Part shown: positions 8,541-56,089 of the stretch, piece after piece
Layout: every line of letters starts with the position of its first letter
Numbering within the stretch: the stretch's first letter is position 1
Origin: Torpedo marmorata
Taxonomy: Eukaryota
Length of the DNA stretch: 64,000 nucleotides
Assembly (NCBI GenBank): GCA_977017645.1
Contig: OZ360243.1
Coordinates: 30,876,001-30,940,000, forward strand
Direction of reading: 5' to 3'
The notes under the pieces: generated by a model
The model's database searches: none
What the model was told of the DNA's origin: nothing
The model's input: only the letters and a program-made list of their open reading frames with translations
Program-made: the position numbers and the translations under genes

Positions 8541-8799
8541 TTAGTTTAAATTGAATGGACATCCCTCGTGATGGTTCTTACATTTGCTATCCATTCTTAG
8601 TTGAGCTGTGAGAGTTAGGTTTACTTTAATCGGGCAAAGCTTTCTCTTTGTTATCAAATGCTTACTAAAATAATTCTCAGAAATTGATTGGATCAGAATC
8701 CTATTGTGATAAACCAGCATTTTACACCACCTCCTCCACTTTTATCCACATAACCACCACCCTCTATATAGATACACTTGCCCCTCAAGCCACCTTGAA

Positions 8800-12566: not shown

Positions 12567-15500
12567 TTTTTTTTTTTTAATATTTTATTTAAATTTTAAA
12601 ATCACACATTACATAAAATAATTTTGCATATAATTCTTAAAAAATACATGTGATTACATTTTCTCCCCCCCCTTCCCACCCTCCCCTCCCCAGCCCCTAT
12701 ATCCCCCTAATCTAAATTTAAAATGAAATAAAATAATAAAAGAAAAGAAAAGAAAAGATAGAAAGATAGAGTGAGGAGTCAGTAAGTTTAAAAACTAATG
12801 TATCTTAGAGGTTATTTCGCCGACGGATCCGATTTCCAGAGAATTTACAATATTAAACCCATAGTCCTCATATATGGGCCCCAAATTTTCAAAAAAGAAT
12901 GATATTTATTTCGTAAATTATAAGTAATTTTTTCTAATGGTATACATGACCGTAACTCTGCATGCCATCGCTCTAGATTTAAATCAACATCCGATTTCCA
13001 AGTAATAGCTATACATTTTTTCGAAACTGCTAATACTATACGTAAAAATTCTACTTGATACATATTTAATCTATTTCTAATACTGAATTTTTTAATATCT
13101 CCAAATAAAAATAACATAGGATCCATTGCAACTTCAACATTAAAAATTCTTTCTAAAAAATTCTTAACTTTCAACCAAAAATCTTGAATTTTTGGACAAG
13201 ACCATGTACAGTGTACAAACGATCCTATTTCAGTTTTACATCTAAAGCACATATCTGATAACGCTGGATTAAATTTCTTCAATTTTTTAGGTGTCAAATA
13301 CAATTGATGAAAAAAGTTATATTGTACTAATCTATATCTCACATTAATAACTTTTATCATACTTAATTTACATAAATCTTTCCAATGATTTTCATCTATA
13401 TTAACATTCAAATCTAATTCCCATTTCAATCTAGACTTATGTACTCCTACTTTAGACATCTTTCTTTGAAACAACTTATACATTTGTGATATAAATTTAT
13501 TAACATTGACTTTAGTAATTAATAATTCCAATTCATTTTGTCTTGGTACTATTAATTCATTCCCTAATCTCTCAATCAAAAAAGCTTTAACTTGAAAATA
13601 AACTAACATTGTATTATCTAATATATTAAATTTTTCTTTTAACCTCTGGAAAGTAATAAATCTACCTGCTTCAAAACAATCTTTTAATGTCTTAATTCCC
13701 TTTAAAAACCATAACTTAAGTAACTGATTATCCATAGAAAATGGTAAAAGCGGATTCTGATATATAGGTGTATTTAAAGAAATTAATCCTTTTTGACCTA
13801 TCTCTTTGTCTACTTGTGACCAAATTTCCAACAAATGTTTAATAATTGGTGTTTTTTTCTTTTTAAGTAATAATAATTTAGAATTCCATTTATAAATAAT
13901 ATCTTCTTTATGTGTTTCTCCCATATTATTCAATTCTATATTAATCCAAGCAGAAGATTTATTTAAATCAAAGAATTCATTAATAAATTTTAATTGAGCT
14001 ACTTTATAATAATGTTGAAAATTGGGAAGTTGTAACCCTCCCATCTCATAATTCCATGTTAATTTATCTATACTTACTCTTGCCAACTTTCCTTTCCATA
14101 AAAATTTCCTAATAATAAATTTTAAATCTTTAAAAAATTTATTTGGAATACCATAAGGAATCGATTGAAAAAGATATTGAATTCTTGGAAAAACATTCAT
14201 TTTAATACAATTTACTCTTCCCATTAAAGTTATAGGTAAATCTTTCCAAAGCTCTAAATCTTTTTTTATTTTCATAAAGAAAGGTATATAATTTAACTTA
14301 TACAAATTTTCTAATTTTGTATCCACTTTAACTCCCAAATATTTAATACTCTCTGTAGTCCATTTAAAGTCCGTAACTTCTTTACATCTAGTATAATCCC
14401 CTTGAGATAAAGCCAAAATCTCACTTTTATCTGAATTAATCTTATATCCTGATATCTCACCATACTCTGTCAATATAATAGCCAATTGCTGAAGTGATGT
14501 AACAGATTTTATCATATATATTAATACATCATCTGCAAATAAACTAATCTTATGTTCTTCCCTACCGACCTTTATTCCCATTATATTTATATCTTCTCTA
14601 ATCATTTCAGCTAAAGGTTCTATTACTAACACAAACAAAGCAGGTGACAAAGGGCATCCCTGTCGTGTTGATCTTGATAATAAAAATTTTTGCGATATTT
14701 GTCCATTTGTAACTACTTTAGCCGTAGGTTCTTTATATATAGTTTTAATCCAATTTATAAAATTATCTCCAAATCCGAATTTTTCCAAAACTTTAAATAA
14801 AAAATTCCACTCTACTCTATCAAATGCCTTCTCTGCATCCAATGTTACCACCAATGGTAAATCTTGTTTCTTCTTATATACATTGATCAAACTTATCAGT
14901 CTAGCTATATTATCTTTCGAATATCTATTTTTAATAAATCCAGCTTGATCTGAATGTATTAAATTTGGTAAATATTTAGCTAATCTATTTGCTAAAATTT
15001 TCGCCATTATCTTATAATCTACATTTAATAATGAAATAGGCCTATAAGATTCTGTTTTTAACACATCTCTATCTTTCTTTGGTATAACCGTAATAATAGC
15101 ATTTAAAAATGTCTTCGGTAATAAATGGGTTTCCATAACTTGATTCAATACCTCCATATATAAAGGTATCAATAAATCTTTAAATTCTTTATAAAATTCT
15201 ACTGGAAATCCATCGTCACCTGGAGATTTACCACTTTTCAACGTCGATATTGCTTCAGTAACTTCTCTCATCGTAAAAGGTAAATCCAAAGAATATTTAC
15301 TTTGAACATTCAATTTAGGTAAAGTAATTTTAGATAAAAATCTATTGATCTTCATATCATCTTGATCAATCTCAGATCTATATAAATTCTGATAATATTC
15401 TTTAAAAGATTCATTTATTTCTTGTGGCTTATAAGTTACTTCCCCAGTATTTCTCTTCCTTATAGCATTAATTGTTTTAGAAACTTGCTCTTTTTTCAAT

Positions 15501-16088
15501 TGCCATGATAAAACCTTATGCGCCTTTTCACCTAACTCATAATATCTTTGTTTTGTTCTTACTATCAACTTTTCGATCTTACGTGTTTGCAATAAATTAT
15601 AATGTAATTTCCTCCTTACTAAACGATTTCTCTTAAGGATAGACTTATTTCTCTGTAAATCCTTTTCCATAAATTCAATCTCCTTCTCTAGTTTTTCTTC
15701 TTCTTTCAAATAATCTTTTTTTATCTTTGCTGAAAAGCTTATTATTAAACCTCTTAGATAAGCTTTCAGAGCCTCCCATACCATAAATTTATCATCTACC
15801 GAATTGTTATTTACTCTTAAAAATTCCTGAATTTCTCGTCTCATATATTCACAAAAATCCTTTCTTTTCAATAAAAAAGAATCAAATCTCCAGTTATATA
15901 TAGTTTTTTCTTTCTCTGGGATTACACGTCATTAATAAAGGTGAATGATCTGAAATTATTCTTGCTTTATAAGATATCTGTGTTATTCTTTCTTGAAGTT
16001 GTGAAGATAATAGAAATAAATCTATCCTAGAAAAAGAATTATGTCTAAATGAATAAAATGAATAATCTTTCTCTCTTGGTTTCAATTT
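12567..16088 (-). mobile_element. L1 LINE, 5'-truncated, AT-rich
   Basis: Poly(A) tail; TSD of about 18 bp ttctctgctgtattcttt (12549-12566, 16089-16106). Confidence 0.95.
12845..15871 (-). CDS. L1 ORF2p (RT and C-terminal Cys domain; endonuclease truncated)
   Basis: KSPGDDG, YRPISLLN, DAEKAFD, TRQGCPLSP, FADD, CFRC..H..WSC in a 1008-aa open frame. Confidence 0.9.
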   Translation of the reverse strand: MKRKDFCEYMRREIQEFLRVNNNSVDDKFMVWEALKAYLRGLIISFSAKIKKDYLKEEEKLEKEIEFMEKDLQRNKSILKRNRLVRRKLHYNLLQTRKIEKLIVRTKQRYYELGEKAHKVLSWQLKKEQVSKTINAIRKRNTGEVTYKPQEINESFKEYYQNLYRSEIDQDDMKINRFLSKITLPKLNVQSKYSLDLPFTMREVTEAISTLKSGKSPGDDGFPVEFYKEFKDLLIPLYMEVLNQVMETHLLPKTFLNAIITVIPKKDRDVLKTESYRPISLLNVDYKIMAKILANRLAKYLPNLIHSDQAGFIKNRYSKDNIARLISLINVYKKKQDLPLVVTLDAEKAFDRVEWNFLFKVLEKFGFGDNFINWIKTIYKEPTAKVVTNGQISQKFLLSRSTRQGCPLSPALFVLVIEPLAEMIREDINIMGIKVGREEHKISLFADDVLIYMIKSVTSLQQLAIILTEYGEISGYKINSDKSEILALSQGDYTRCKEVTDFKWTTESIKYLGVKVDTKLENLYKLNYIPFFMKIKKDLELWKDLPITLMGRVNCIKMNVFPRIQYLFQSIPYGIPNKFFKDLKFIIRKFLWKGKLARVSIDKLTWNYEMGGLQLPNFQHYYKVAQLKFINEFFDLNKSSAWINIELNNMGETHKEDIIYKWNSKLLLLKKKKTPIIKHLLEIWSQVDKEIGQKGLISLNTPIYQNPLLPFSMDNQLLKLWFLKGIKTLKDCFEAGRFITFQRLKEKFNILDNTMLVYFQVKAFLIERLGNELIVPRQNELELLITKVNVNKFISQMYKLFQRKMSKVGVHKSRLKWELDLNVNIDENHWKDLCKLSMIKVINVRYRLVQYNFFHQLYLTPKKLKKFNPALSDMCFRCKTEIGSFVHCTWSCPKIQDFWLKVKNFLERIFNVEVAMDPMLFLFGDIKKFSIRNRLNMYQVEFLRIVLAVSKKCIAITWKSDVDLNLERWHAELRSCIPLEKITYNLRNKYHSFLKIWGPYMRTMGLIL

Positions 16089-20340: not shown

Positions 20341-23173
20341 TTTTTTTTTTTTTTTAAATATTTTATTTAAAATTTTTAAATCACAAAATACATAAAATAG
20401 AATATAAAATTATCAAATTATTTGTGATACATTTTCACCCCCCCTCCCTCCCTTCCCCTCCCCAACCCTCCCAACCCCACTAATCTAATAAAAAATAAAA
20501 ATAGAAAATAAAAATAGAAAAAGAAGAAGAAAAAGAAAAAGATAGAGTAAGGGGAATGCCAATCTATAAACTAATTCTATTATGGAGGTCAAGTATGCCA
20601 GTAGATCCGATATCCAGAGATCTTCAAATCCTTAAACCAACAGCTTTCATATATGGGCTCCAAATTTTTAAGAAGAAATGATATTTATTACGTAAATTAT
20701 AAGTAATTTTTTCAAGTGGTATACACGAACGAAGTTCTGCATGCCATCTGTAAGAGCCGTAGGCTCAGTAACTTACCTTGCTGCGGCGCTCCGACGCCTC
20801 GTCGGCTTGTGGAGCGCTCGCGTTGTCCGTTGGGCCGTCCTCGGCCCGTTCTGTGCTCTGCGCATGCGCTGGAGTGCCGACGGGCGCATGCGCAGTTTGG
20901 AGTGACGTCATTGTGCGCGGTGCAGTCTGGGAAATGTAGTATGCGCGGTGGAGGGTGCGCAGTGTTATAGAAGCGACGGAGCATGCGCGAATCGTAGAGA
21001 AAAGGAAAGGAATAAGATGTTAGGAGGGTGAGTGAAATCTCCATATCTTTATTGACCGTTTTACAGCGTTTTATATCGTTTTATAACGTCTTATACATCG
21101 TTTTGGAATTGTTTAAAGAATCATTTAAAGAAACTCATCATACATCGTTTACAAGAACTGTTTATATTAAAGTCATTGAAGATTACTGCAAGTCACGTGT
21201 GTAAATAAAGATTTTTGAACATATTGGACTTTGTTGGTAAATTAATTAAAACGCGTCAAAGACAAGTATCTCAATTAGCCTCCAGGTGACTATTGTTGGA
21301 TCGAAGTCACCATAATACCATCTTTCTAATCCTAAATCAGATTTCCAAGTAATAGCGATGCATTTCTTTGAAACAGCTGAAGCAATTTGTAAAAATTCTA
21401 TTTGATACATATTTAATTTCATCTTAATACTAAATTTTCTAATATCTCCAAACAAAAATATCATAGGATCCATTGGAAATGTAATCTTAAATACTTTATC
21501 TAAGAAATTTTTAACTTTCAACCAAAAATCATAAACTTTTGGACAAAACCATGTAGAATGTACAAAAGACCCTTCCTCTTTATTACATCTAAAACATAAA
21601 CCTGATAGTGTCGGATTAAATTTCTTTAATTTTTTTTAGGTGTTAAATATAATTGATGAAAAAAATTGTATTGTACTAATCTATATCTAACATTAATAAT
21701 CTTCGTCATACTTAATTTACATAATTCTTTCCAATGATTTTCATCTATTCTTACATTCAAATCTAATTCCCATTTTAATCTTGATTTATGCAATCCTACT
21801 TTAGGCATTTTCCTCTGAAACAATTTATACATTTGAGAAATAAATTTATTAACATCTCCATTAGTAACTAATAATTCTAATTCATTTTGTCTTGGTAAAA
21901 TCAAAGCATAACCTAATTTCTCAATCAGAAAAGCTCTAATTTGATAATAAGCAAAAAGTGTATTATCTAATATATTAAATTTATCTTTCATTCTTTGAAA
22001 AGTAATAAATTTCCCAGCTTCAAAACAATCATTAATCTTCTTAATTCCTTTTTGAAACCAAATTTTAAATAATTGATTATTAATAGTAAATGGAATAAGT
22101 CCATTTTGATATAAAGGCATCCTTGAAGAAATCAATCCTTTTCCTCCTATTTCCTTATCCGTCTTATTCCATATTTCTAACAAATGTTTAAAAATAGGTG
22201 AATTTTTCTTTCTTGTTGATATTAATTTAGAATCCCATTTATAAATAATTTCTTCTTTGGAATCTTCTCCGATATTATTTAATTCTATTTTAATCCAAGC
22301 AGAAGATTCAGTTGAATCAAAAAATTCATTAACAAATTTTAGTTGAGCTGCTTTATAATAATTTTGGAAATTAGGAAGTTGTAAACCACCCATTTCATAA
22401 TTTCAAGTTAATTTGTCCATACCTACTCTTGCTAACTTTCCTTTCCATAAAAAATTTCTAATAATTGAATTTAAATCTTTAAAAAATTTGAGGAATTCCA
22501 TAAGGAATTGATTGAAAAAGATATTGAATTCTTGGAAAAACATTCATTTTAATACAATTTACTCTTCCCATTAAAGTTATAGGTAAATCTTTCCAATTTT
22601 CTAAATCTTTCTTTATTTTCACAAATAATGGTAGATAATTTAATTTGTATAAATTAGCCAATTTTGTATCAACCCTTATTCCCAAATATTTAATTCCTTC
22701 CTTTGCCCATTTAAATTGTGTAATTTCTTTACATCTACTATAATCCCCTTGTGATAATGCCATAATTTCACTTTTATCAGAATTAATTTTATATCCAGAT
22801 ATTTCCCCATATTCTCTCAATAACACAGACAATTGTACTAAGGATGTAATAGATTTTGTCATATATATCAATACATCATCTGCAAACAAACTAATTTGAT
22901 GTTCTTCCATTCCAACTTTAATACCAACTATTTTAGGATCTTTTCTAACTAATTCTGCCAAAGGTTCTATTGCCAAAATAAATAATGCTGGTGACAAAGG
23001 ACATCCTTGTCTAGTAGATCTAGTCAGGGGAAATTTTGAAGAAATTTGTCCATTTGTAACTACTTTAGCAGATGGTTCTTTATATATAGTTTTAATCCAA
23101 TTAATAAATGTATTTCCAAAACCAAATTTCTCCAATACCTTAAATAAAAAATTCCACTCTAATCTATCAAAAG
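20341..23173 (-). mobile_element. L1 LINE, 5'-truncated, with solo LTR insertion
   Basis: ORF2 fragments; poly(A); TSD aagcaaacct (20331-20340, 23174-23183). Confidence 0.93.
20749..21317 (+). mobile_element. Solo LTR of the BEL/Pao family found at 46435-52330
   Basis: tgtaagagccgtagg...caccataata; 5-bp TSD ccatc. Confidence 0.92.
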
Positions 23174-34888: not shown

Positions 34889-35242
34889 ATTTGTTATGCA
34901 TCTTTATCTTTGTTATTGATATGCCTATCAATTAGCACTCAAGAGACTATGAGAGGGTTAACCATAGGCTTTAATACACATAAAACAGACCAACAGTAGA
35001 CCTGCAGATCTCAACCGGACTGTGGGCGGAGCAGTGGCACACAGGCCTTTATTCAGTTGAGAAAAGGGGAGGGATTACCTGGACACCCAAAGGAGGGGAG
35101 AGGAGTCGCCGGGACAGACAGCAGTACATACAATACACAAACAGTGGTTTACCACATTCACCCCTCCTTTTAAAAGAGTCCAGCGGGGTGAAGTGGCCAC
35201 AATACAATCGCTACAGGAATTCAAAATACTTACAGTCATAAT

Positions 35243-37040
35243 CTACAGGTCAAGGCGATCCGGTGGTTTGGCTCGCCTTTGTGACCTGCGCAGTACCCTG
35301 GGTGCGGGTTGTGGTGCAGGGGGTACCCTGGGTGCAGGTTGTGGTGCAGGGGAAGATGGCAAGGCCGTCGCCTCCTCCTGTGGTGCTGGGTGAGATGGCA
35401 GGATTGTGGGTTCCATCGAGGGTGCCTGGTCTGACGTTGTAGAAGAGGGAATAGGGAGAGGCCGGGGCGCCAGGTCCCGAATTGAGACCATGTCCTCTCT
35501 CCCATCCGGGAAGACCACGTAGGCGTACTGCGGGTTAGCGTGCGCTAACTGCAACCTCTGGACCGCGGGCTCATATTTGCTGCTCCGGAGGTGGTTGCGG
35601 AGCAGCACCGGCCCCGGAGACGTCAGCCAGGCAGGCAGGGCGGTTCCGGTGTTCGACCTCCTGGAGAAGGAGAAAAATCTCTCATGGGGCGTTACATTGG
35701 TAGCTGTGCACAGTAAGGACCGTATCGAATGGAGGGCTTCGGGGAGAACATCTTGCCAGCGGGAAACCGGCAGTCCCCTGGACTTGAGAGCCAGGAGCGC
35801 CGCCTTCCAGACAGTGGCGTTCTCCCTTTCCACCTGTCCATTACCTCGGGGGTTGTATGCGGTGGTCCTACTAGTGGCGATGCCCCGGGTCAGCAGGAAC
35901 TGGCGCAGCTCCTCACTCATAAAAGCTGATCCCCGGTCGCTATGAATGTAGTTCGGGAAGCCGAACAGCGTAAATACCTGGCGAAGAGCTTTTATGGTTG
36001 AGGCAGCCGAAGTGTCGGGGCAGGGATTGGCGAAGGGGAACCGCGAGTACTCGTCAATAATGTTCAGAAAGTACACATTGCGGTTCGTGGAGGGAAGGGG
36101 CCCCTTGAAGTCAATGCTGAGACGTTCAAAGGGGCGAGTGGCTTTGATCAGCTGTGCCTTGTCGGGGCGGTAGAACTGGGGTTTGCACTCCGCGCAAACC
36201 CGGCAACTGCTGATCATTGTCCTGACCTCTTCCAGGGAGTATGGCAGGTTCTGTGACTTCACGAAGTGAAAGAGCCTGGTAATTCCTGGGTGGCATAGGT
36301 CGTCATGTAGGGCGTGTAATCGGTCGACCTGCGCGCTGGCGCATGATCCCCGGGATAGAGCATCGGAGGGCTCATTGAGCTTCCCGGGCCGGTACATGAT
36401 GTCGTATTTGTAGGTGGAGAGCTCTATTCTCCACCTCATGATCTTGTCATTTTTGATCTTACCCCGCTGCTGATTGTTGAACATGAATGCCACAGAGCGT
36501 TGATCTGTCAGCAGGGTAAAATGCTTACCGGCGGGATCGTGCCTCCAATGCCTGATGGCCTCCACTATGGCCTGGGCTTCCTTCTCCACCGCTGAGTGCC
36601 GAATTTCGGGGCCCTGAAGGGTTCGAGAGAAAAATGCCACCGGCCTTCCCGCCTGGTTGAGGGTAGCAGCCAGCGCGAAGTCCGATGCGTCACTCTCCAC
36701 CTGGAAAGGTGTCTCCTCATCCACTGCGTGCATTGTTGCTCGCGCAATGTCCCCTTTTATAAGGTCGAACGCCTTACGTGCCTCCGAAGCAAGGGGAAAT
36801 GCAGTGGATTTCACAAGGGGTCGGGCCTTATCCGCATAATTTGGGACCCATTGGGCATAATAGGAAAAGAACCCGAGGCATCGTTTAAGGGCTCTGGGAT
36901 TGGTGGGGAGCGGAAGTTCCAGCAGGGGCCGCATGCGTTCGGGGTCTGGTCCAATTACCCCGTTCTCGACCACATACCCCAAAATAGCGAGGCGAGTGGT
37001 ACCAAACACGCATTTTTCTTTGTTATACGTGAGGTTTAGC
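35243..37040 (-). CDS. Gypsy RT C-terminus, RNase H and integrase (after frameshift at ~37035)
   Basis: SDASDF RNase H; H..HPG..C..C zinc finger; IDFKG / SDRG / VER DDE core; no chromodomain. Confidence 0.9.
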
Positions 37041-39116
37041 CACCTGCAGGAACCTCCGGAGGTTGTTGTCATGGTCCTGACGATCATAACCACAGATGGT
37101 AATGTCGTCAAGATATGGGAAAGTGGCTTTAAGTTTGTAATGGTCCACAATCCTGTCCATCTCCCGCTGAAAAACAGAAACACCATTAGTAACACCAAAC
37201 GGAAGGCGCAGGAATTGGAACAGCCTGCCATCTGCCTCGAACGCGGTGTATGAACGGTCCTCCCGACGGATAGGGAGCTGGTGATATGCCGATTTCAAGT
37301 CGATGGTGGAAAAGAGACGGTATTGGGCAATTTGGTTCACCATCTCCGCTATCCGTGGTAGCGGGTATGCATCTAGTAGCGTAAACCTGTTAATGGTTTG
37401 GCTGTAGTCCACCACCATTCTGCTCTTGGCCCCTTTTACAACAACCACCTGGGCTCTCCAGGGACTATTACTCTTCTCTATAATCCCTTCCTGTAGCAAT
37501 CTCTGTACCTCCGTCTTGATAAATGCTCTGTCCTCGGCACTGTAACGCCTGCTTTTAGTTGCCACAGGCCTACAGTCCGGGGTCAGGTTCGCAAACAATG
37601 ACGGAGGCGAGATCTTAAGGGTGGAGAGACCACAGGTGGTTTCGGGCGTGCTATCCAGAAACTGGTGGTTGACTACAGTGATCGCGGGGAGAGGACCGTC
37701 ATACCGCATTGTAACGCTCTGCAAATGGCTTTGAAAATCCAAACCCAGTAACACCGGCGCACACAAACGGTTCATGACAAACAAGGAAAATTGCCGGTAC
37801 TCAGTCCCTTGTACCACAATGTTCGCCACACACGCCCCCCGGATGTCTGTTGTGTGGGACCCCGACGCCATGGCCACCCTCTGGCTTACCGGTACGATCG
37901 TTAGGCCACAGCGTTGAACAGTATCCGGGTGGATAAAGCTCTCAGTGCTGCCAGTGTCGAATAAACACGTTATCTTGTGTCCCTCGACCAGTATGTCCAT
38001 CATAGATCGTGCCAGCTGGTGGGGAACGTTCTGGTCGAGGGTGATGGATGCCAAAGTTGGGGTGAAGTCGTCTTGGTCCGAGGTCTTTAAAAATGGCCGC
38101 TCCCGTGGGTTGCACGTGTCGCTGGAGGTCTCTGTACAAAATGGCGGCGCCGGAAGTGCAGGAAGTAACGAGGTACGGCTCTGAGATGGCGGCGCCGGAA
38201 GTGCCAGCATGAAAGATGGCCGCTTCCACTCTTCACACGCGGTCGGCGCCGGAAGTGCCAGTCTGCAAGATGGCCGCTCCCATCTCTCGCACGCGGCACT
38301 ACTCGGGCCCGCGCGCGGCTTGGAGCGGCAGGCCTTCGCGAAGTGGCCTTTCTTGCCGCAGTTGGAACAAGTCGCGTCGCGGGCTGGGCAGCGTTTCCTC
38401 GTATGCTTGTCGAGCCCGCAGAAGTAGCACTTCTCGGGCTCGCGATTAACAGCTGCGGCGGTGAGAGTAGCGTCGGTAGCGGTCGGGTCGCGGGTAGCGG
38501 CGGCAACAATTGGGTCGCGGGCCACAGTTGGATCGGTGGGGCTGGGGAACGGGGCGATCCACGCATTAGCCTGGGGGTCCCGCGTCTGCATCGCGTCGGA
38601 GTTCTGCAGCGCGGACTCCAGCGTGCGAACCATCGCCACCGCAGAACGGAGATCGAGGTCAGAGTGCTCCAGCAGTCGCTGACGTACGTATACTGACCTC
38701 ATCCCCATAATAAAGGTGTCCCTCTCCAGCAGATCAACATGTTGTTCTTCAGTCAGCGCTTTACAGGCGCACGCTCGCACTAGGGACTGAATGTCCCTGA
38801 CAAAGTCCACTATTGACTCCCCGGCCCGCTGTTTTCGTAACGATAGTCTATACCTCGCGTAGACCTCATTAACAGGGGTCACATAGATCTTTCTCAGTGC
38901 CTCCATCGCCTCGTCGTACGTCCCACATTTCCAGATGTTTGAATACAACCGAGGGCTTACCCTAGATACTAGGACCTCTAGTTTCTGCTCGTCGCTTTCG
39001 GCTTTGACCTCCTTTGAGAACGATCGGAGGCAGCGTAGCCAGTGTTCGAATGCATGGCCAGCATCAGGAGCTAAAGGGTCGATGTCCAGTCTGTCCGGTC
39101 GGAGGGCGCCTTCCAT
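37023..39116 (-). CDS. Gypsy Gag-protease-RT (first part of a frameshifted polyprotein)
   Basis: Zn knuckle CSNCGKKGHFAKAC; LFDTGS protease; YPLP, LPFG, YLDD RT motifs. Confidence 0.9.
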   Translation of the reverse strand: MEGALRPDRLDIDPLAPDAGHAFEHWLRCLRSFSKEVKAESDEQKLEVLVSRVSPRLYSNIWKCGTYDEAMEALRKIYVTPVNEVYARYRLSLRKQRAGESIVDFVRDIQSLVRACACKALTEEQHVDLLERDTFIMGMRSVYVRQRLLEHSDLDLRSAVAMVRTLESALQNSDAMQTRDPQANAWIAPFPSPTDPTVARDPIVAAATRDPTATDATLTAAAVNREPEKCYFCGLDKHTRKRCPARDATCSNCGKKGHFAKACRSKPRAGPSSAACERWERPSCRLALPAPTACEEWKRPSFMLALPAPPSQSRTSLLPALPAPPFCTETSSDTCNPRERPFLKTSDQDDFTPTLASITLDQNVPHQLARSMMDILVEGHKITCLFDTGSTESFIHPDTVQRCGLTIVPVSQRVAMASGSHTTDIRGACVANIVVQGTEYRQFSLFVMNRLCAPVLLGLDFQSHLQSVTMRYDGPLPAITVVNHQFLDSTPETTCGLSTLKISPPSLFANLTPDCRPVATKSRRYSAEDRAFIKTEVQRLLQEGIIEKSNSPWRAQVVVVKGAKSRMVVDYSQTINRFTLLDAYPLPRIAEMVNQIAQYRLFSTIDLKSAYHQLPIRREDRSYTAFEADGRLFQFLRLPFGVTNGVSVFQREMDRIVDHYKLKATFPYLDDITICGYDRQDHDNNLRRFLQVAKPHV

Positions 39117-39444
39117 AATTTTTCTTATGTGTATTAAATTGATATGCCTATCAATTAGCACTCAAGAGACTATGAGAGGGTTAACGAACCATAGGCTTTA
39201 ATACACATAAAACAGACCAACAGTAGACCTGCAGATCTCGACCGGATTGTGGGCGGAGCAGTGGCACACAGTCCTTTATTCAGTTGAGAAAAGGGGAGGG
39301 ATTACCTGGACACCCAAAGGAGGGGAGAGGAGTCGCCGGGACAGACAGCAGTACATACAATACACAAACAGTGGTTTACCACAGTTATATAAAGTACACT
39401 GTTTGACCAGCTGAGTTTCTCCAGCATTGTATTTTTATTTTAAT

Positions 39445-46312: not shown

Positions 46313-47515
46313 CCTATTGTAAGGATACATAAAAATTGCTCTTGTGGCAATGCAATCTTTTGCAGCGCCATGTCCCTTGAAAATTCCATTCCCTAGTTTT
46401 GTTCTTCTGAGACTTGTACAAGTTGGAAGATGACTGTAAGAGCCGTAGGCTCAATAACTTACCTTTGCCGTGGCGCTCCAATGCCTCGTCGGGTTGTGGA
46501 GAGCTCGCGACATTCGTAGGCCGTCCTCGGCCTGTTTGTGCTCTGCGCATGCGCTGGAGTGCCAACGGGCGCATGCGCAGTCTGTAATTGACGTCGTTGT
46601 GCGCGGTGTAGTATGGGAAATGTAGTATGCGCGGTGGAGAGTGCGCAATGGAATAGGAACATGGAGCATGCGCGAATCGGAGAGAATAGGATAAAGATGG
46701 CGACGTAGGAGGGTGAGTGAGATAGCCATATCTTTATTGACCATTTCATACAGCGTTTCATAGACATTTCAAGACGTTTCATCGATAGTTTCATTGAACT
46801 TTTAAACTAGTTATTTTGTGGTTTAAAATCGTTTATTTGAACATCTCAATACAGTCTAAGGAATCATTTAAAGGAACTCATCATACATCGTTTTCAAGAA
46901 CTGTTTGTATTGAAGTCATTGAAGATTACTGCAAGTCACGTGTGTAAATAAAGTTTTTGAACATATTGGACTTTGTTAGTAGTTTAATTGAAACTCGTCA
47001 AAGACAAGTATCTCACTTAGCCTCCAGGTGACTATTGTTAGATCGAAGTCACCATAATATAGTCAATAAAGAGCTGGATGTTTGGAACAGAAAATTGAAG
47101 GAAAGAAGATAGAATAATCTCTCTGTGCTTTGGACTGATATTTAAAATAAAATGGTGGCCATCTTGAAGATGCCTCGAGTTGGGGGCAGTTTGTAATCCA
47201 GATCCATCTGCCATGAATAGCAGCCAGAGAGGGATTTAAAGCTTCAAATCTTATAGTAAAGTATCCTATAAATACGTTGGAGAAACCATTTTTGGAAAAT
47301 CAGTGATATTATTGACGGATGTTGTGGTTGAAACTCGTTTGTGGATAGCAGCACATTACAGTCATTTGAAGTGGTAGGCATAAGTCTGTGGACTCCTTCT
47401 GTGTATCTTTGGCAAGTAAGAACACCGATTGGAATTGCTGCCGCTGGTCCATTGGGGACTGTTGTTTTGGCTAGTGTTGTGTATGCTTGAAGGACAGAGG
47501 AACAAGACGAGTAAA

Positions 47516-49300
47516 ATGGCCGCAGCAGCCTCTGATACAGCAACCGCTGATGTTGCTGTTGAGGACCAACGTATTGAAGACATGAAGATTGCGGATATTA
47601 AAGAAGAATTGAAGCGACTGAAAAAGGACATAAGTGGAAATAAAAAGTTTCTTATCGCAAGATTGAAGCTGGCAAAGGATGAAGAGGCAGCTTCATTAGA
47701 TGAACAAGAAGATAACTTGGAAATGGCTAAAATTGTGTCACCAAATGATGAAGAAAATAAAGAGGTTGAAGATGCAAAGGATATACAATTCGAATTGGAT
47801 AAAGAGGTAAGTATGAAGACAACATATGAACTGCAGGACGAAATACAAGCAAGTGACAGTGTCTCAAATGCTGAAAGCAGGAGAAGCAAAAGAACTTCTG
47901 GTTCGAGCTCCAGAGTTTCTCGTACTTCAAGTTCTGCATCGTCACGTACAAAGATTGATGTTAAATTGGCCGGTTTTCTTGCACAACAAAAAATGCTTAA
48001 GGATAAATATATTTTAGAACAAGAGGAGGAGCAGCTAAGACAAAAGGAGGAGCAGCTAAAGGAGCAGCTAAGACAAAATGAGAAGCAGCTAATGGAGCAG
48101 CTAAGACAAGAGAAGGAGCAGCTAAGGCAGAGAAAAGAACAGCAGGAGCTGGAAGCAAACATTGCTATTGCCAAGGCAGAAAAGAAAGCAATAGAAGGCT
48201 CAATAGTATCTGGCGCTCGAAGTAAATTATCTAAAGTGTCTGATAATAAAAGGTCATATTTTAAAAAAGAGTCACAGGAAAAGAAACCAACCAAAAGGGT
48301 AGTTATTTTAGAATCAAGGATACAAGATTTGCAAATACAAGGATAAATCTTTCAAGAGCATATTGGTAACGAGTCACATGTACCAATGGAAACATCTGAA
48401 AGCAAAGCTGCGTCTTGGGTTCGGTCGAACGAAGCAGCTTCTTTGTTATTTGAGTCAAGCATCAGAAATATGGAAGAAACTACACCAGTGAGGTTTCCAG
48501 ATACATTGCATGCAACAAGAGACGGTGAACAGAGCAATGTATTGTCATCCAAGGAAAGACAAAATGAAATTGCTGCATCATTGTTTCAGTTACAGTCTCT
48601 CTCTTCTTTACCCAAGAAAGAGATACAAACTTTTGATGGTGATCCACTTCAGTATCAATCATTTATGAGATCTTTCAAACGCAATATTGAAGATAAATGT
48701 CAAGATCGTGATGAATGTCTTTATTATTTGGAAATGTTCACAAAGGGACATCCAAAAGAACTGGTAAAGAATTGTAAACAAATGTCTTCAGAAAGAGGAT
48801 TAGACAAAGCTAAGGCTTTACTGGAACAATATTTTGGCAACAAGCATCGAATTGTTTTAGCTTATTTGGATAAAGCTCTTAAATGGACATCAATAAAACA
48901 AAATGATGTAAAGGCTCTGCAAGAATATACTTTGTTTTTAAGAGGATGTTGTAATGCTATGGAAGATATCGATAATATTCGTGAGCTTGAAGTGCATAGT
49001 AATATGCGAATCATCTTAGAAAAATTACCTTACAAGTTATGGGATAGATAGAGAAATTTGGCTTGTGATTTACAAGTAAATTACGGTCGAAAAGTTACCT
49101 TAAAGGATTTGGTAAATTTTCTTGAATGACAGGTGTACGTTGAAACAGATCCACTATTTGGAAATACCAGAGATAATTCAATGGGCAAAGATGTAAGGAA
49201 GTCTAATTCACAGCCTAGTCCGAAATTAAAAAGGAGTACTTTTGCTACTAATGTGTCAGTTATAAGTAAAGAAAAGGACAAAGTAAATAAGAAAAGGAAA
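47516..49300 (+). pseudogene. SAP-domain N-terminus plus BEL Gag (in-frame stops at ~48344, 49049, 49127; frameshift at ~49300)
   Basis: SAP motif 47573-47665; EQLRQ repeats; FDGDPLQY...LYYLEMFTKG BEL Gag signature; ORF pieces share one frame. Confidence 0.82.
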
Positions 49301-49302
49301 GT

Positions 49303-51318
49303 TTGCCTGATGAAAAGAGTTGTTTGTTCTGTAAAGGTGGACATACTTTGGAAATGTGTTTACGATTGGAAAAGAAGGAACATAAGGAGAAGATCGCTTT
49401 CTTAAAGGAAAATGGAATATGTTTTAGCTGTCTGTGTAAAGGGCACATCAGTAAAAACTGCGAAAAGCGAATTAATTGTAACATATGCAATTTGAAACAT
49501 CCTAGAATTTTGCATATCCATAACAGAAACAAGGAATTGGAAAAGGAGCAAACAGAAAGAAAGGAAACAACAGAAAATAATGTTATAACCTCGGTTCAGA
49601 CAAGTGGTCTTACCGGGGCCGGTGTGGATAACTGCAAACTTTCGATAGTGCCTGTACAAGTCAAGACCAAGAAAGGGGATGCAATAGTAAAAACATATGC
49701 ATTTCTAGACCCAGGCAGCACTGCATCTTTTTGCACGGAAGGACTAATGAATAAACTTAATATTCAAGGAAGAAGATCAAGAATTATGTTAAAAACCATG
49801 GGACAAGAAAAGGTCGTTGAAACTAGCATTGTTTCAGGCTTAGAGGTTGCTGGATTATATGACAAAAAATTTTGTGATCTTCCAAGTTTATATACTCAGA
49901 AGACTATGCCTGTACATGAAGGAAATATTCCTCATCAAAAGGATATCCATCATTTAGCTTATCTGTGGAAGGTTTATTTACCTGAAATTAATTCTGAGAT
50001 AGAAATGATGATTGGTTCAGATGTGCCAAAGGTTTTGGAACCGAAAGAAGTAATACAGTGTAAAAGGAATGGACCTTACGCTATTAGAACCAAGTTTGGT
50101 TGGACAATCAATGGACCATTGGAAAGAAATAATGATATTGCTCAGGAACAGTTAGCAATAAATATTAATAGAATTTCGGTTGTGAAAGTTGAAGAGTTAA
50201 GCGAAGAGCAAAAAACCGTGAATAAGAAAATCACTTTTGAAGAAAAGAAAACAGATCAATGTGAAAATAAATCAAGGGTATTTAAAACAACATTGAAGGA
50301 ATTATTTTTACCAAAAATGGATGAAAGTGAAGTATTAGAAGATGTTGCAAATAATACTATTGATTGTTCATGTGTAATCAAATCAGATACAGGAATAAAA
50401 CAAGTGACTGAAAACAAATCTGAATGTAGATTTTGTAGTTCAGAGATTACAATAGACAAAGCTAATGAAGAAATATTGCAATGTGATGTAAAACTGGAGA
50501 ACGCGGAAAATTGTGCTGATGGAATAAAGAATAATGTGAATGATAATTTAATGCAATTGAATTCAGAGAACAAAATGTTGAAAGGGGAATTGGAAATATT
50601 AGATAATCATGAAAACAGTAAACAGAAAGATTTAATTGTAAGTAAAACTCGCAAAGTCAGAAAGCGGAAGAAAAGAATAACTGCTGAAGAAATGAATACA
50701 GTTATTGAGGAAAGAGATTCAGCATTATCAAAATGTAAAAGGTTGGAGGAAGAGATTAATGTTTTGAAAGAGAACAAGTTATTGGTTAATAACACAAAAC
50801 AGTTGACTTTAAAAACCAATCAAGAATGTAAATTGAATGTTCAACAATTAACAATGCAGAAAGAATGTGATATTGCATTGCAGAAATGTAACAAGCAAGA
50901 TGAAGAAATTAAAAAATTTCAAGTTTGCCGCAGCAGGATTAACAATGGAAATATCAATGTATCACATGATATTTTGACTTCAGATCAAATTATTAATTTC
51001 TCAGAAAGAACTGAGACTGAATTGAAAGTTGCAAAATTGGATTTGGAATTGCAGGAAAGAGCAATAGAAACCAGAGTGGTTAAACAGACCTGTTTAAAAT
51101 CGAAAGGATCAAATAAATATTCAAATTCTAGTTCTAAGAGTTTAAATTCTTCACACGAGAAGTGGAATGCTGAAGAAAGGAATAAAGTGAAACGACATGC
51201 TGAAGAAGTGCCTCGTGTTAAATTCAAAAGGAAAACTGTATCTATTTTGTCTGAGGAAGATTTGAGGTTTACTGGTCGACGTTTTAACTCAAAGATTATG
51301 GAGATAAAAGAACTTTAA
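49303..51318 (+). CDS. BEL Zn knuckles, aspartic protease and MIPOL1-like coiled coil
   Basis: CLFC..H..C, CFSC..GH..C, CNIC..H..H; YAFLDPGS protease; RITAEEMNTVIEERDSALSKCKRLEEE; 671 open codons. Confidence 0.8.
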   Translation: MPDEKSCLFCKGGHTLEMCLRLEKKEHKEKIAFLKENGICFSCLCKGHISKNCEKRINCNICNLKHPRILHIHNRNKELEKEQTERKETTENNVITSVQTSGLTGAGVDNCKLSIVPVQVKTKKGDAIVKTYAFLDPGSTASFCTEGLMNKLNIQGRRSRIMLKTMGQEKVVETSIVSGLEVAGLYDKKFCDLPSLYTQKTMPVHEGNIPHQKDIHHLAYLWKVYLPEINSEIEMMIGSDVPKVLEPKEVIQCKRNGPYAIRTKFGWTINGPLERNNDIAQEQLAININRISVVKVEELSEEQKTVNKKITFEEKKTDQCENKSRVFKTTLKELFLPKMDESEVLEDVANNTIDCSCVIKSDTGIKQVTENKSECRFCSSEITIDKANEEILQCDVKLENAENCADGIKNNVNDNLMQLNSENKMLKGELEILDNHENSKQKDLIVSKTRKVRKRKKRITAEEMNTVIEERDSALSKCKRLEEEINVLKENKLLVNNTKQLTLKTNQECKLNVQQLTMQKECDIALQKCNKQDEEIKKFQVCRSRINNGNINVSHDILTSDQIINFSERTETELKVAKLDLELQERAIETRVVKQTCLKSKGSNKYSNSSSKSLNSSHEKWNAEERNKVKRHAEEVPRVKFKRKTVSILSEEDLRFTGRRFNSKIMEIKEL

Positions 51319-51319
51319 A

Positions 51320-51501
51320 GAGACATTGTGATTATTATGGATAATTCAACTTCAAGAAACTCCTGGTTACTTGGAAAAATTATTGAGACTTTTCAAGACA
51401 AAAGGGGACTTGTGCGTCAAGTGTGAATTAAAACTAAGTCTGGTTTTCTAAATAGACCTATTAACAAGGTTTGTCTTTTGTTGGAGACGGAGGAACTTTG
51501 A
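51320..51501 (+). pseudogene. Vestigial BEL integrase C-terminus (DUF5641-like)
   Basis: DIVIIMDNSTSRNSWLLGKIIETFQDKRGLVRQV*IKTKSGFLNRPINKVCLL. Confidence 0.8.
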
Positions 51502-53129
51502 TAAATACAAAACTGACTTTATTTGTTGTTGTATACTTCACAGGTTACAGACTTGTTGATTCAGAGTTATGGTAAACTCTAGTTTTATGAAGAAGGAAGA
51601 AAGAAGATTTGTATATTGTTTGAATGTTATAGTTATTGTTATTTATAATTTAGTGTGTAATTATTATTTAAGACATTGTGTCTAATTATAATAATTAGGG
51701 GCCGGTGTAAGAGCCGTAGGCTCAATAACTTACCTTTGCCGCGGCGCTCCAATGCCTCGTCGGGTTGTGGAGAGCTCGCGACATTCGTAGGCCGTCCTCG
51801 GCCTGTTTGTGCTCTGCGCATGCGCTGGAGTGCCGACGGTCGAATGCGCAGTCTGAAATTGACGTCGTTGTGCGCGGTGTAGTATGGGAAATGTAGTATG
51901 CGCGGTGGAGAGTGCGCAATGGAATAGGAACATGGAGCATGCGCGAATCGGAGAGAATAGGATAAAGATGGCGACGTAGGAGGGTGAGTGAGATTGCCAT
52001 ATCTTTATTGACCGTTTCATACAGCGTTTCATAGACATTTCAAGACGTTTCATAGATAGTTTCATTGAATTTTTAAACTAGTTATTTTGTGGTTTAAAAT
52101 CGTTTATTTGAACATCTCAATACAGTCTAAGGAATCATTTAAAGGAACTCATCATACATCGTTTTCAAGAACTGTTTGTATTGAAGTCATTGAAGATTAC
52201 TGCAAGTCACGTGTGTAAATAAAGTTTTTGAACATATTAGACTTTGTTAGTAGTTTAATTGAAACGCGTCAAAGACAAGTATCTCACTTAGCCTCCAGGT
52301 GACTATTGTTGGATCGAAGTCACCATAATAATGACCGTCTGCCCTCAGCTAACTGTTTACTAAAGCGCTGCGGCTTGATCTGGAACCTTTCCATAATGCT
52401 TTATGGATCGCAGAATAGTATCGCTATGCTCAGCAATCTAATGTTGAGGTTATTTAAAAGCTGAATTAAAATGCTGGTTTGAAAAGGAACTTCCCTGGCT
52501 ACTGGCTAACCAACCATTCTTTCACGGGCCTTCTTTGGTACGTAGTTTCAGAAGTCTTTTGAGTACTCTGCTGCCACGGAGCCACCAAATGTTATTGTGG
52601 TCCAGAACATCGCTGCACTGAACATCATTTTCTTCCAAGTAACGTTGGAATACTCTGTGGTTGAGTTCATGAACTCGAATGAAATTTACTGTCAACATCA
52701 GTTTCATACCATAATCAAAATCTAGTGCCTTTCCACAAAGCGCCTGTTGATATATAATGCAATTGATTTTGCTATGCCCGTTGATTTTCGATGGCTATTA
52801 ATTATTCCTATCATTAATATTTTATCCATCGTGTCGCTTGCGCTGTCTGTGGTAACACGTTTAGAGTTTCTCGTTTTAAATCCAGAAGCTGGAATATATT
52901 GTCGACGTTTATTAAAATGTCTGTCTTTGTAACAGTGTAGTTAATAGGATACAGCCCCGCCAGTTTCTTGGTACCTGTATATGAATACAAGCAACTCTAC
53001 CCTGTCAACAATGTTTTACATTCAAAGTAACAAAAAGAGACATAAAAACTTGGGTGTACACTTGTTATTGTGTCAACTGATCATCACCTAAATTTTTGCT
53101 TCCACTGACTGGTAACTGCCTAAACCAGC

Positions 53130-53478: not shown

Positions 53479-55036
53479 CTGCCAGCTGATGGACACCACT
53501 TTCAAAAGTCTTGTTTTTCTCGATTTCCTCGATTATTTCTAATATGCACTCCTCCCTGTAAAAGGCTTACGGGCTGGGCGCTGAGACGCTCAGTAGCTGG
53601 CTCTCACGGAGGCAACGTTTTCCCCTTATTTCCTTTTTTTTGTGATTGGGCTGACTCAAGGAATTTCTTCAACCCCCTCAGATTTTGTTTCCTTCCGGCA
53701 TTCGCTCGTTTATTTAGATAAATGGTTTATTGGCATCTCAAGCAAATAACTTGTGGGCCAGAAAATATCTATCCGACCACTTTTCATTACATTCGTAACG
53801 CGTTGCTTCGTCCTTTGACACATGGATGTGATACTTGGAAAGGAGGTGAAGAGAAACAGTGAAGTCTGCAATAGAATAGGAACCATAAAAGGCAACACAT
53901 TCAATGGGCCGACGTGTTTCTTGCTTTTGATCGGCTGTTCTTAATAGCCGACGTGGTCGTTCTTTTTAATACTTGCATGGGTACTGGTCCGAAAAAATAA
54001 ATTGGCCGACAGGCCATACTTTGGGAGCATTTCTCTGATGGGATCATATTAGTTACGGATTTATCGTGTACGAGGAGAGAAAGGAAAAATTATAAAGCAG
54101 AATCTTACATGGTGATTGTCCCACTCCTGTTTCTAATATTCTATAGCTGTTATAACACACTGCCGAGTCGCTAAAGAGGCGTCATTTATTTTTTCACATG
54201 CATTTCAAAATAGTTGTCCCGGCAGTGGTATTATAATCGAGGAAGCAAGAGAAGCAGCGCTCTTTAACAATAGTACATATAAAATTCTGCAGATGATATA
54301 GCTTTCACAGATTTGCCAACATACGCCTAAGTGCGTCTCTTCTGCCGCTCGGAAGCCAGGCTGCCACGTTGTATGGTTCGGGTAATGGCAGCGAAAAGGA
54401 ATCCGAACAACAATATACGTGTTCGTGGTCCCGAGGAGAACACCAGAAAGCCTTATTGGTTCGTTTTCAGACAATGGGCCGTAACCGCACGACCGTTTCA
54501 ACTGTTATTTAATAATTCGGATCGGGCGACAGTTATACAGCTGCATTCGTTGACATGTGCGGGGAGTTATCGCTATTAATTGTATGGTGGTGGTTTAACT
54601 GTCAAATAGTCGTAAAATGTTGTGCCTGATTGACAACGTGGGAATGTAAAAGTTGAAACAAGTGATAAAAGTGGACGAAGGTAGCGCACAGCATAAAGGT
54701 TCAAATTCCAAGTTAACGATACTTTTGGATACCAAAGGATTGGGCGAGTGATGTCACTGAAGTGAGGTGCACACCCTAAAAAACTGGTTCTCCTCCCAGA
54801 ATACGTGGCAGCCACAATCCCCAACCTCAGCAAATCACTGCGGTCTGTCAGCGATTCCAGAAAACTTGAAGGTATCGGATTTAAGCGACTTTAAGGCAGG
54901 ACCTCCTGCTCAACTTTCGTATTAGTGCTCCTCCTCCGAAAGTAGCATTCTGTGCAGGCCACTGTGCCCGCATCTGACTGTGTCCATTGGTCCAAGATCG
55001 CCCGACTCGACCCTTTCGTTGAGTTGCAGTAGCAGT

Positions 55037-55330
55037 ATGACATCCATGAAGCAAAAACATAAAAATCATTCTGATCGCAGTTCCACCAGACTGCAAGATG
55101 ACGTGGCAAAGAGGAACTCGAAGGGAAGCAAGGGGGGAACAGAGTCGGCTTCGACCATTGGGAAGGTGGTGAATGTTGTGCTCTTTTTAATCCTGGCTGC
55201 GTCGGCTGCAGTTTTCGGCTGGTATATCCACAGTCTCTCGGAGCAGATCAACCATTTTCACCAAATGCATGAAGAGACGTCCCTACAAAGCAATGAACTG
55301 GCGAAGAAGATGGAAACAGTTCTTCACCAA
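55037..55330 (+). CDS. CKAP4: Cytoskeleton-associated protein 4 (CLIMP-63), coding exon 1
   Basis: MTSMKQK...DDVAK cytosolic tail; single TM segment VVNVVLFLILAASAAVFGWYI; start of luminal coiled coil; phase-0 donor CAA|gtaaga; CpG-retaining upstream region. Confidence 0.85.
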
Positions 55331-56089
55331 GTAAGAGCACAATTTATCTAAGTTTCACTCAGGCTCAACAACGTGCTCTATTGTGAGAACCTGTGGTTGA
55401 ACTTCCTCCCTTCAAAATTATTTTTAACCATTTGCTTCCTCTACACTCTTGAGGTGTTTTTACAGGTTTTAAAACCATGCTGGTCCCCAACGCCCAAAGG
55501 CAGCGGTCTTGTAGCATTGCTCGTCTCCTTTGTTGCTTTTGCATGGATGTTCATAAACAAATATTTCCTATCAATGACTTTATAACTTTGGTTCTGGGGG
55601 AATCATATTCTTCTGGGGGAATTTATATACTTCACATCCAGGCACGAATAATACATTTTCTGAAAATGGCATATTAATGCATCAGATATGTTGGTATTAT
55701 TTCAATCTGCGTGAGGTATTTATTTCACTTGCATAGCCATTTCAAATAGGGCAGATAGATAAAAAGCTATCCAGCTATTGCCATATCAAAGAGGGCAAGT
55801 AGGTAAAAATGGAAAACTGCGCATTATGTTATGTTTAACCTGTATTAAACCTTTGTTATACCACACTAGAGTACAATTTTGATTGCCATATTACAAAAAG
55901 ACATTAGAGAAGGTGAAATGGAAAGAATACAAGGGTATACATATCAGGAAATGATGAACAGAGTGGTTCTCTTGAGAAAAGAAAACCTGAGAGGAAACCA
56001 AACAGAAGGCATTAACATTTTATAAAGGATTTTGATTGGAGTTGATACCGAGAGACTGAGGGGAAAACATAACTGGAGATCATGACTTT

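Follow-up and report, generated by a model that had tools for sequence, protein, structure and literature searches.

How a stretch resembling a vertebrate gene came to stand in the open frame of a retroelement, and what kind of RNA it was copied from, are the questions raised by this locus of the ray Torpedo marmorata. The window, by which we mean the whole 64,000-nt stretch of DNA that was analysed, contains at 46435-52330 a non-autonomous BEL/Pao LTR element. Where RT, RNase H and integrase would be expected, this element has segments of three host genes, BRCA1, MIPOL1 and Elongin A (ELOA), all in frame and lacking introns, and we regard the three-gene capture as near certain. The parts of the element are listed below.

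46430..46434, with a second copy at 52331-52335, no strand: target-site duplication ATGAC, 5 bp
46435..47059, + strand: 5' LTR, 625 nt, 613/625 identical to the 3' LTR, ungapped
47483..49290, + strand: gag, with a SAP domain and a DUF1759 capsid region (Pfam PF02037, E 4.4e-5; PF03564, E 4e-6)
49291..50206, + strand: zinc knuckles and aspartic protease (FLDPGS), within the open frame 49291-51318
50207..50635, + strand: BRCA1 piece, host exon R plus the first part of the large exon S; identity to the host ~80%
50628..50933, + strand: MIPOL1 exons F (part), G and H, spliced and colinear
50933..50934, + strand: seam of the exon H donor and the exon B acceptor, the predicted back-splice junction, non-colinear
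50934..51087, + strand: MIPOL1 exons B and C (parts), with an 81-nt in-frame deletion at 51005|51006
51078..51296, + strand: Elongin A piece, consisting of part of exon J, a 111-nt in-frame deletion, the end of K and the start of L
51320..51502, + strand: remnant of the integrase C-terminus, 3' of the ORF stop and with an internal stop of its own
51686..51705, + strand: polypurine-tract (PPT) region preceding the 3' LTR, its 20 nt identical in 6/11 full-length BEL elements (those with an exactly called LTR edge)
51706..52330, + strand: 3' LTR, pairing with the 5' LTR

The two LTRs are 98% identical, begin with TGT and end with TAATA, not CA. The gag of the window copy, whose start codon is probably 47483 or 47516, is broken by stops at 48344, 49049 and 49127 and by a frame change near 49290. 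The window element has no RT or RNase H, and its integrase is reduced to the last ~60 codons, located after the stop. In 15 copies chosen for long frames, a single frame of 1272-1370 aa extends from Gag through the whole cargo. All 15 contain two zinc knuckles, as judged by pattern, and an xLDxGS motif (FLDPGS in 14), and YVDD is absent from every one of them.

A sequence-only reading of this DNA had proposed a MIPOL1-like fragment in the open protease frame, and this was borne out. The frame spans 49291-51318 and the peptide lies after the FLDPGS protease. When post-protease residues 130-270 were compared with 338 candidates, 41 scored E<=0.1; each of these 41 has PF27918 and PF27921 (MIPOL1_N and MIPOL1_C), and every hit named by its source is MIPOL1. 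The top protein match was the MIPOL1 of Narcine bancroftii (E 5.9e-30, 58% identity over 128 aa). The Pfam profiles used gave no MIPOL1 family on the window or on an old copy of the element. With the Narcine protein as query, the genome contained one host locus, on C40; at the protein level, most exons of this locus share 86-96% identity with Narcine bancroftii. The window DNA maps to this gene exon by exon, and no intron interrupts it at the host junctions F|G and G|H. The MIPOL1-specific hits, together with this match, ruled out a generic coiled-coil likeness. The host-exon alignment, which the sequence-only reading had suggested as a check, thus also confirmed its claim of an intron-free, spliced source, and its claim that the fragment diverged with the frame kept held as well.

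The order of the MIPOL1 exons is scrambled. Pairwise comparison with Narcine MIPOL1 gave two blocks in swapped order, residues 449-571 followed by 295-375, and the genome search found many loci with residues 437-553 placed directly before 295-385. We examined 320 kb of the host MIPOL1 region (G000:C40:64322001-64642000), across which all exon borders could be set as AG/GT. Exons B and H occur there once each, in the normal order and 206 kb apart. The seam in the element joins the donor of exon H, which ends ...TACTACAG/gt in the host, exactly to the acceptor of exon B 206 kb upstream. The fragment had previously been placed at 50629..50934, which is correct as to MIPOL1 and wrong as to its end, since 50934 is the first base past the H|B seam and the permuted MIPOL1 continues to ~51087. 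In an alignment of 20 host-like (old) copies, 20 window-like (young) copies and the window copy, the seam is ungapped for 8 nt on either side in 41/41, and the predicted 20-nt junction is present without a mismatch in 15 of the 20 host-like copies.

Together, exons B-H make up 780 nt, which is divisible by three, and there are 0 in-frame stops round the implied circle. The host-like copies contain a continuous 587 nt consisting of F (from base 48), G, H, B, C and 18 nt of D. This segment starts at circle position 454 in 19/20 of them and ends at 1040-1042 in 17/20, indicating one capture. Only exons B-D and F-H are present in the copies, and the exon I stretch matches a single place, the host gene. 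Two features of circRNA-derived retrocopies (Dong et al. 2016) are present: a non-colinear junction at splice sites, and no parent sequence beyond the exons of the circle. Because a linear mRNA cannot place exon H before exon B, a back-spliced circular RNA is the most likely template; of the earlier proposal of a spliced mRNA, the splicing stands and the linear form most likely does not. We consider it very likely that the MIPOL1 piece was copied from such a circle, with the seam known from DNA alone. The copied span (587/780 nt) makes no full turn and has no rolling-circle repeat, which counts against taking it as proof of a circle. A search of public runs listed five, with four organism labels and one guessed to be RNA, and no RNA holder was among them; when four runs were compared with an old copy, no contig among those listed bridged the seam by 31 nt per side. 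Inverted repeats in the introns flanking the circle were also considered as support and proved uninformative (59 inverted and 64 direct matches).

The same exact splice-site seam would be expected if the scrambled order came from a linear RNA, either by trans-splicing of MIPOL1 pre-mRNA or from a genomic tandem duplication of B-H that was later lost, and non-colinear pseudogenes may sometimes arise otherwise (Dong et al. 2016, PMC4897178). We find this origin improbable. There is no second B or H within the 320 kb, the exon after H is found at one genome place only, and the Narcine protein is without such a repeat. Moreover, both capture ends fall inside B-H, as a circle predicts, and mouse Mipol1 has been reported to make an exonic circRNA, the exons of which are not given in the accessible part of that source (PMC9888537). 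It is also conceivable that the RT made a backward jump on one linear MIPOL1 mRNA, or from one to another, and landed on exon borders by chance, in line with the other junctions, which were likely made by RT template switches, and with the derived junction deletions, which overlap by 8-10 nt. However, both ends of the seam are at splice sites sharing only AG, the chance of a random jump meeting an exon end and an exon start is ~3e-4 to 4e-3, and the other capture ends are never at splice sites. In addition, exon B has tandem acceptors TAG/CAG (C40:64591883-64591878), and the captured seam takes the proximal one, adding CAG; judging by the Narcine protein, the linear mRNA uses the distal one. 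Such a jump is therefore very improbable, and the back-spliced circle is our preferred template. We also noticed that host exon G (C40:64463599-64463492) is one codon longer than both the element copies and the Narcine bancroftii protein, indicating that the host gene likely changed after the capture, a difference that can serve to date it.

The MIPOL1 fragment had been described as fused right after the protease. The fusion is in frame, but the two are not adjacent: a BRCA1 piece (50207-50635) lies between them and an Elongin A piece (51078-51296) follows, both of which had been overlooked. The BRCA1 stretch matches BRCA1 of the skate Rhinoraja with E 1.4e-18 in the search and E 4e-31 in the pairwise comparison. 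The BRCA1 cargo is made of four spliced host exons in the order of C61, and the R/S exon junction of the window is near 50320|50321. It corresponds to aa ~166-387, outside the RING and BRCT domains. An Atlas search with this stretch returned MIPOL1 clusters and missed BRCA1, and the DNA search of the ray's own genome gave element-length matches only, among those listed. A bacterial repeat protein (P0067) that matched the BRCA1 stretch was treated as a chance hit.

The Elongin A cargo is made of five spliced host exons in the order of C41. The old copy P0042 matches PF06881 (E 6.7e-16) and human Elongin A in PDB 8oev_M (E 7.5e-37). In old copies, the protease-BRCA1, BRCA1-MIPOL1 and MIPOL1-ELOA joins are all in the host frames, and the original BRCA1/MIPOL1 switch shows a microhomology of only ~2 nt. 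In old copies (L097:6611-6630, among others), MIPOL1 and ELOA are separated by a 20-nt linker that had no match in the ELOA and BRCA1 loci or in 11 full-length BEL copies, and that possibly represents a fourth source. The window and the young family are without the downstream PF06881 region that is present in old copies; this region follows the BC-box. Loss of ELOA exon K by exact exon skipping was rejected because 111 nt are deleted, against an exon length of 115 nt. None of 881 candidates was an annotated fused protein of 652-2000 aa, which is weak evidence.

The capture is a family of >12,000 copies and not one event at the window locus. In the 6.2-Gb genome, the derived seam pattern gave 12,632 matches and the host-like 20-mer seam 239 further matches (control 0 for each), counts that are lower bounds and include tandem arrays. 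Identity to the MIPOL1 exons is 93-96% for the old copies, 7/20 of which show LTR pairs of 82-94% identity, while the young copies are ~80% identical to the host exons and have pairs at 95-100% in 18/20, 15 of these having been chosen for long frames. Among 20 position-sampled copies, a repeat pair was found in 11, with a mismatch of 0.3-12.6% (median 3.3), and just two had a frame >1250 aa. The 111-nt ELOA deletion of the young family is also present in some old copies, which ties the two layers together. The cargo is represented in contigs from four public runs; in run X2, one of 930 nt reaches from the protease through BRCA1 into MIPOL1 (49941-50870), indicating that the chimera is not an assembly artefact.

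Several placements of family members were seen in passing. At least five copies lie in introns of host MIPOL1 (C40:64322001-64642000), and one lies ~90 kb upstream of BRCA1 (C61:25617688-25618785). Whole elements form head-to-tail arrays at L201-L205 (C1:1.498-1.518 Mb) and at C30:34.887-34.914 Mb, with periods of ~4964 and 5233 nt, and L111 has a 405-nt internal tandem repeat containing the seam; these may be real arrays or assembly effects.

Since the element itself has no RT, we looked at its intact relatives. Of 150 scored PF05380 matches, 11 lie within frames of 2018-2134 aa, and these 11 full-length BEL elements all have YVDD, FLDPGS, an integrase end like that of the window, and LTR pairs 97-100% identical. 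A first helper candidate, a decayed element on C40, was dismissed, as the 150 scored copies of its family have frames of <=727 aa. The LTR-gag-protease DNA of the window is 81-92% identical to the 11 full-length elements up to 50211, and the similarity resumes from 51320, with 88-89% identity to 7/11 over 51320-51801. By contrast, the full-length elements and the old cargo family are only ~72% identical. The dS of gag-protease between full-length BEL and young copies is 0.03-0.08, versus 0.17-0.23 for the cargo between young and old copies, and the young 3' end has ~150 nt more integrase than that of old cargo copies. The extra integrase requires recombination, and together with the dS values it indicates that the cargo is older than its present backbone. 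From these comparisons, the cargo was likely moved onto, or repeatedly re-fitted to, the backbone of the intact family by recombination. The intact relatives, which share gag-protease, PPT and integrase end with the element, are likely its helpers in trans. The gag/protease dN/dS of 0.4-0.6 (young vs old) was not used for the cargo lineage because this region appears to be helper-derived.

Taken together, we think it quite probable that this non-autonomous BEL/Pao element obtained its cargo by RT template switching and the MIPOL1 part from a circular RNA. An older BEL family would have co-packaged host RNAs, and its RT would have crossed the BRCA1 mRNA, 587 nt of the 780-nt MIPOL1 circle and the ELOA mRNA in one or several rounds. 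The resulting chimera would supply its own Gag and protease and borrow RT and integrase in trans, and later recombination would have placed the cargo onto the backbone of the currently intact BEL family. Selection would have acted mainly for a frame open to near the 3' LTR.

We are confident that selection keeps the cargo frame open. From host to young copies, the cargo gained 0 stops where 11.7 were expected, and 0/5000 simulations were free of stops. The deletions of the young family (24, 9, 81, 3 and 111 nt, and three more across junctions) all keep the frame. Across two alignments, one of 25 young copies and one in which 26 of 28 copies were aligned, indels common to at least three copies were multiples of three in 8/8 cases (5/5 without three that are possibly host-side), private indels were multiples of three in 18/76, and those in exactly two copies were frameshifts in 12/15. 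One stop is common to at least three young copies.

What the open frame is kept for is less clear. With kappa set to 2, the cargo dN/dS between the host and five young copies is 0.76-0.91; with kappa 4, it is 0.96-1.14, and the substitution spectrum (146 transitions, 74 transversions) fits a kappa near 4. The cargo does not qualify as a functional paralogue of MIPOL1, BRCA1 or Elongin A with complete domains under purifying selection: MIPOL1 is partial and permuted, and dN/dS is near 1. A stop after the protease would leave >1.5 kb of untranslated RNA, a known trigger of decay. This long 3' untranslated stretch favours selection at the RNA level, and we lean slightly toward a frame kept for avoidance of NMD or for RNA stability, not for the amino acids of the cargo. 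The cargo tail could instead be a working part of the polyprotein, with selection on the protein, if the MIPOL1 coiled coil aids particle assembly or, in the old family, if the Elongin A module recruited Elongin B/C. The old cargo does hold the PF06881 region. Variants shared among 25 young copies (24 position-sampled and the window; 6 of 30 had been dropped before this test, four as tandem repeats and two as rearranged) are depleted of amino-acid changes, with N/S 1.66 vs 3.18 for single-copy variants (p=0.022; MIPOL1 alone p=0.011), and the protease shows no contrast in the same test (1.69 vs 1.71). The low shared N/S suggests some amino-acid constraint on the cargo. Three pairs of intact young copies also have a cargo dN/dS of 0.44-0.53, a biased figure in that the pairs were picked by protein likeness. 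Against a protein function, dN/dS is ~1 when young copies are compared across the long span with the host or old ones, deletions shortened the cargo time and again, and the young family, which was successful, no longer has the PF06881 region. We therefore consider a working protein tail doubtful, and the RNA-level explanation is the one we favour.

Parts of this picture are already known: multi-gene spliced capture by LTR elements (Tan et al. 2016; maize Bs1) and circRNA-derived pseudogenes near LTRs. The mouse circRFWD2 pseudogenes resemble the ray family in that a non-colinear exon seam is fixed in DNA, in many copies from one circle and in an LTR context; there are 33 high-confidence copies, and MMERVK10C-int is marked in Fig. 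1D (PMC4897178). The ray family differs in having >12,000 copies, in which the piece is internal BEL/Pao cargo with both LTRs, PPT and TSD, and is in frame with Gag-protease and two more genes through ~20% divergence. While the circRFWD2 mechanism was termed 'mysterious' (PMC4897178), the carrier and a likely helper are identified here. In LTR-mediated retroposition (Tan et al. 2016, PMC5131818), as far as the accessible part of that paper describes it, spliced host RNA likewise replaces the internal ORFs, and the ray element keeps both LTRs. At least two genes can be combined and re-mobilised as a non-autonomous element, young ones often in frame, and the mouse 'Super' retrocopy combines four genes (PMC5131818). 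However, the word 'circular' is absent from its main text, and the part available gives older cases as mostly frame-lost (14/21) and reports no comparable long-lived, high-copy, frame-conserving family (PMC5131818). Maize Bs1 is also an LTR element with three host-gene segments in a hybrid open frame; it is a plant element, the portion of the review available to us mentions no back-spliced piece, and Bs1 is reported to be transcribed and translated, while the ray element is known from DNA (PMC13317346). In the open-access literature, we found no report of this element, nor of circle-derived in-frame cargo in a high-copy family.

A VGP survey of processed pseudogenes places MIPOL1 first of the five most retrocopied genes of cartilaginous fishes and, in its available part, attributes such lists to a bias in formation together with selective filtering (bioRxiv 10.64898/2026.06.26.734816). 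Its main text does not contain 'circular', 'BRCA1' or 'ELOA' (bioRxiv 10.64898/2026.06.26.734816). If the MIPOL1 copies of the survey belong to the same family, they would represent one capture amplified as transposon cargo. As a caution, both MIPOL1 retrocopy counts in cartilaginous fishes and circRNA calls at the seam can stem from a single transposon family.

Dong et al. (2016, PMC4897178) did not settle how circRNA returns to DNA. With the carrier, the ends, a likely helper and two age layers in one genome, an LTR template-switch route becomes testable, at a copy number ~400 times that of the mouse example. The family also separates open-frame selection from protein selection with thousands of replicates, and it preserves as a fossil a back-splice event of the ray lineage, including the choice of acceptor. 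More speculatively, and with only tentative confidence, cartilaginous-fish BEL/Pao particles may routinely package germline circRNAs, and the circle, BRCA1 and Elongin A may have formed a replacement Pol tail that was kept open, re-backboned and amplified >12,000-fold while beginning to come under protein selection. If such routine packaging is true, it would explain why MIPOL1 tops the retrocopy list of cartilaginous fishes, and the transcripts could be a source of small RNAs against BRCA1, MIPOL1 and ELOA.

The remainder of the window contains further elements and frames. An open frame at 54926-55351 (+), ~2.7 kb downstream of the 3' LTR, has one hydrophobic segment and no significant Pfam match; to us it resembles the first exon of CKAP4/CLIMP-63. 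Long open frames at 8713-10950 (+) and 12845-15928 (-) are presumably Penelope-like and L1/Tx1-like, respectively. At 34960-39383 (-), gag-protease-RT and RNase H-integrase frames lie between 197-nt direct repeats of 98% identity, an element we assume to be Ty3/gypsy-like. Lastly, a solo-LTR-like copy at 20749-21317 is 79.5% identical to the LTR of the element described here.
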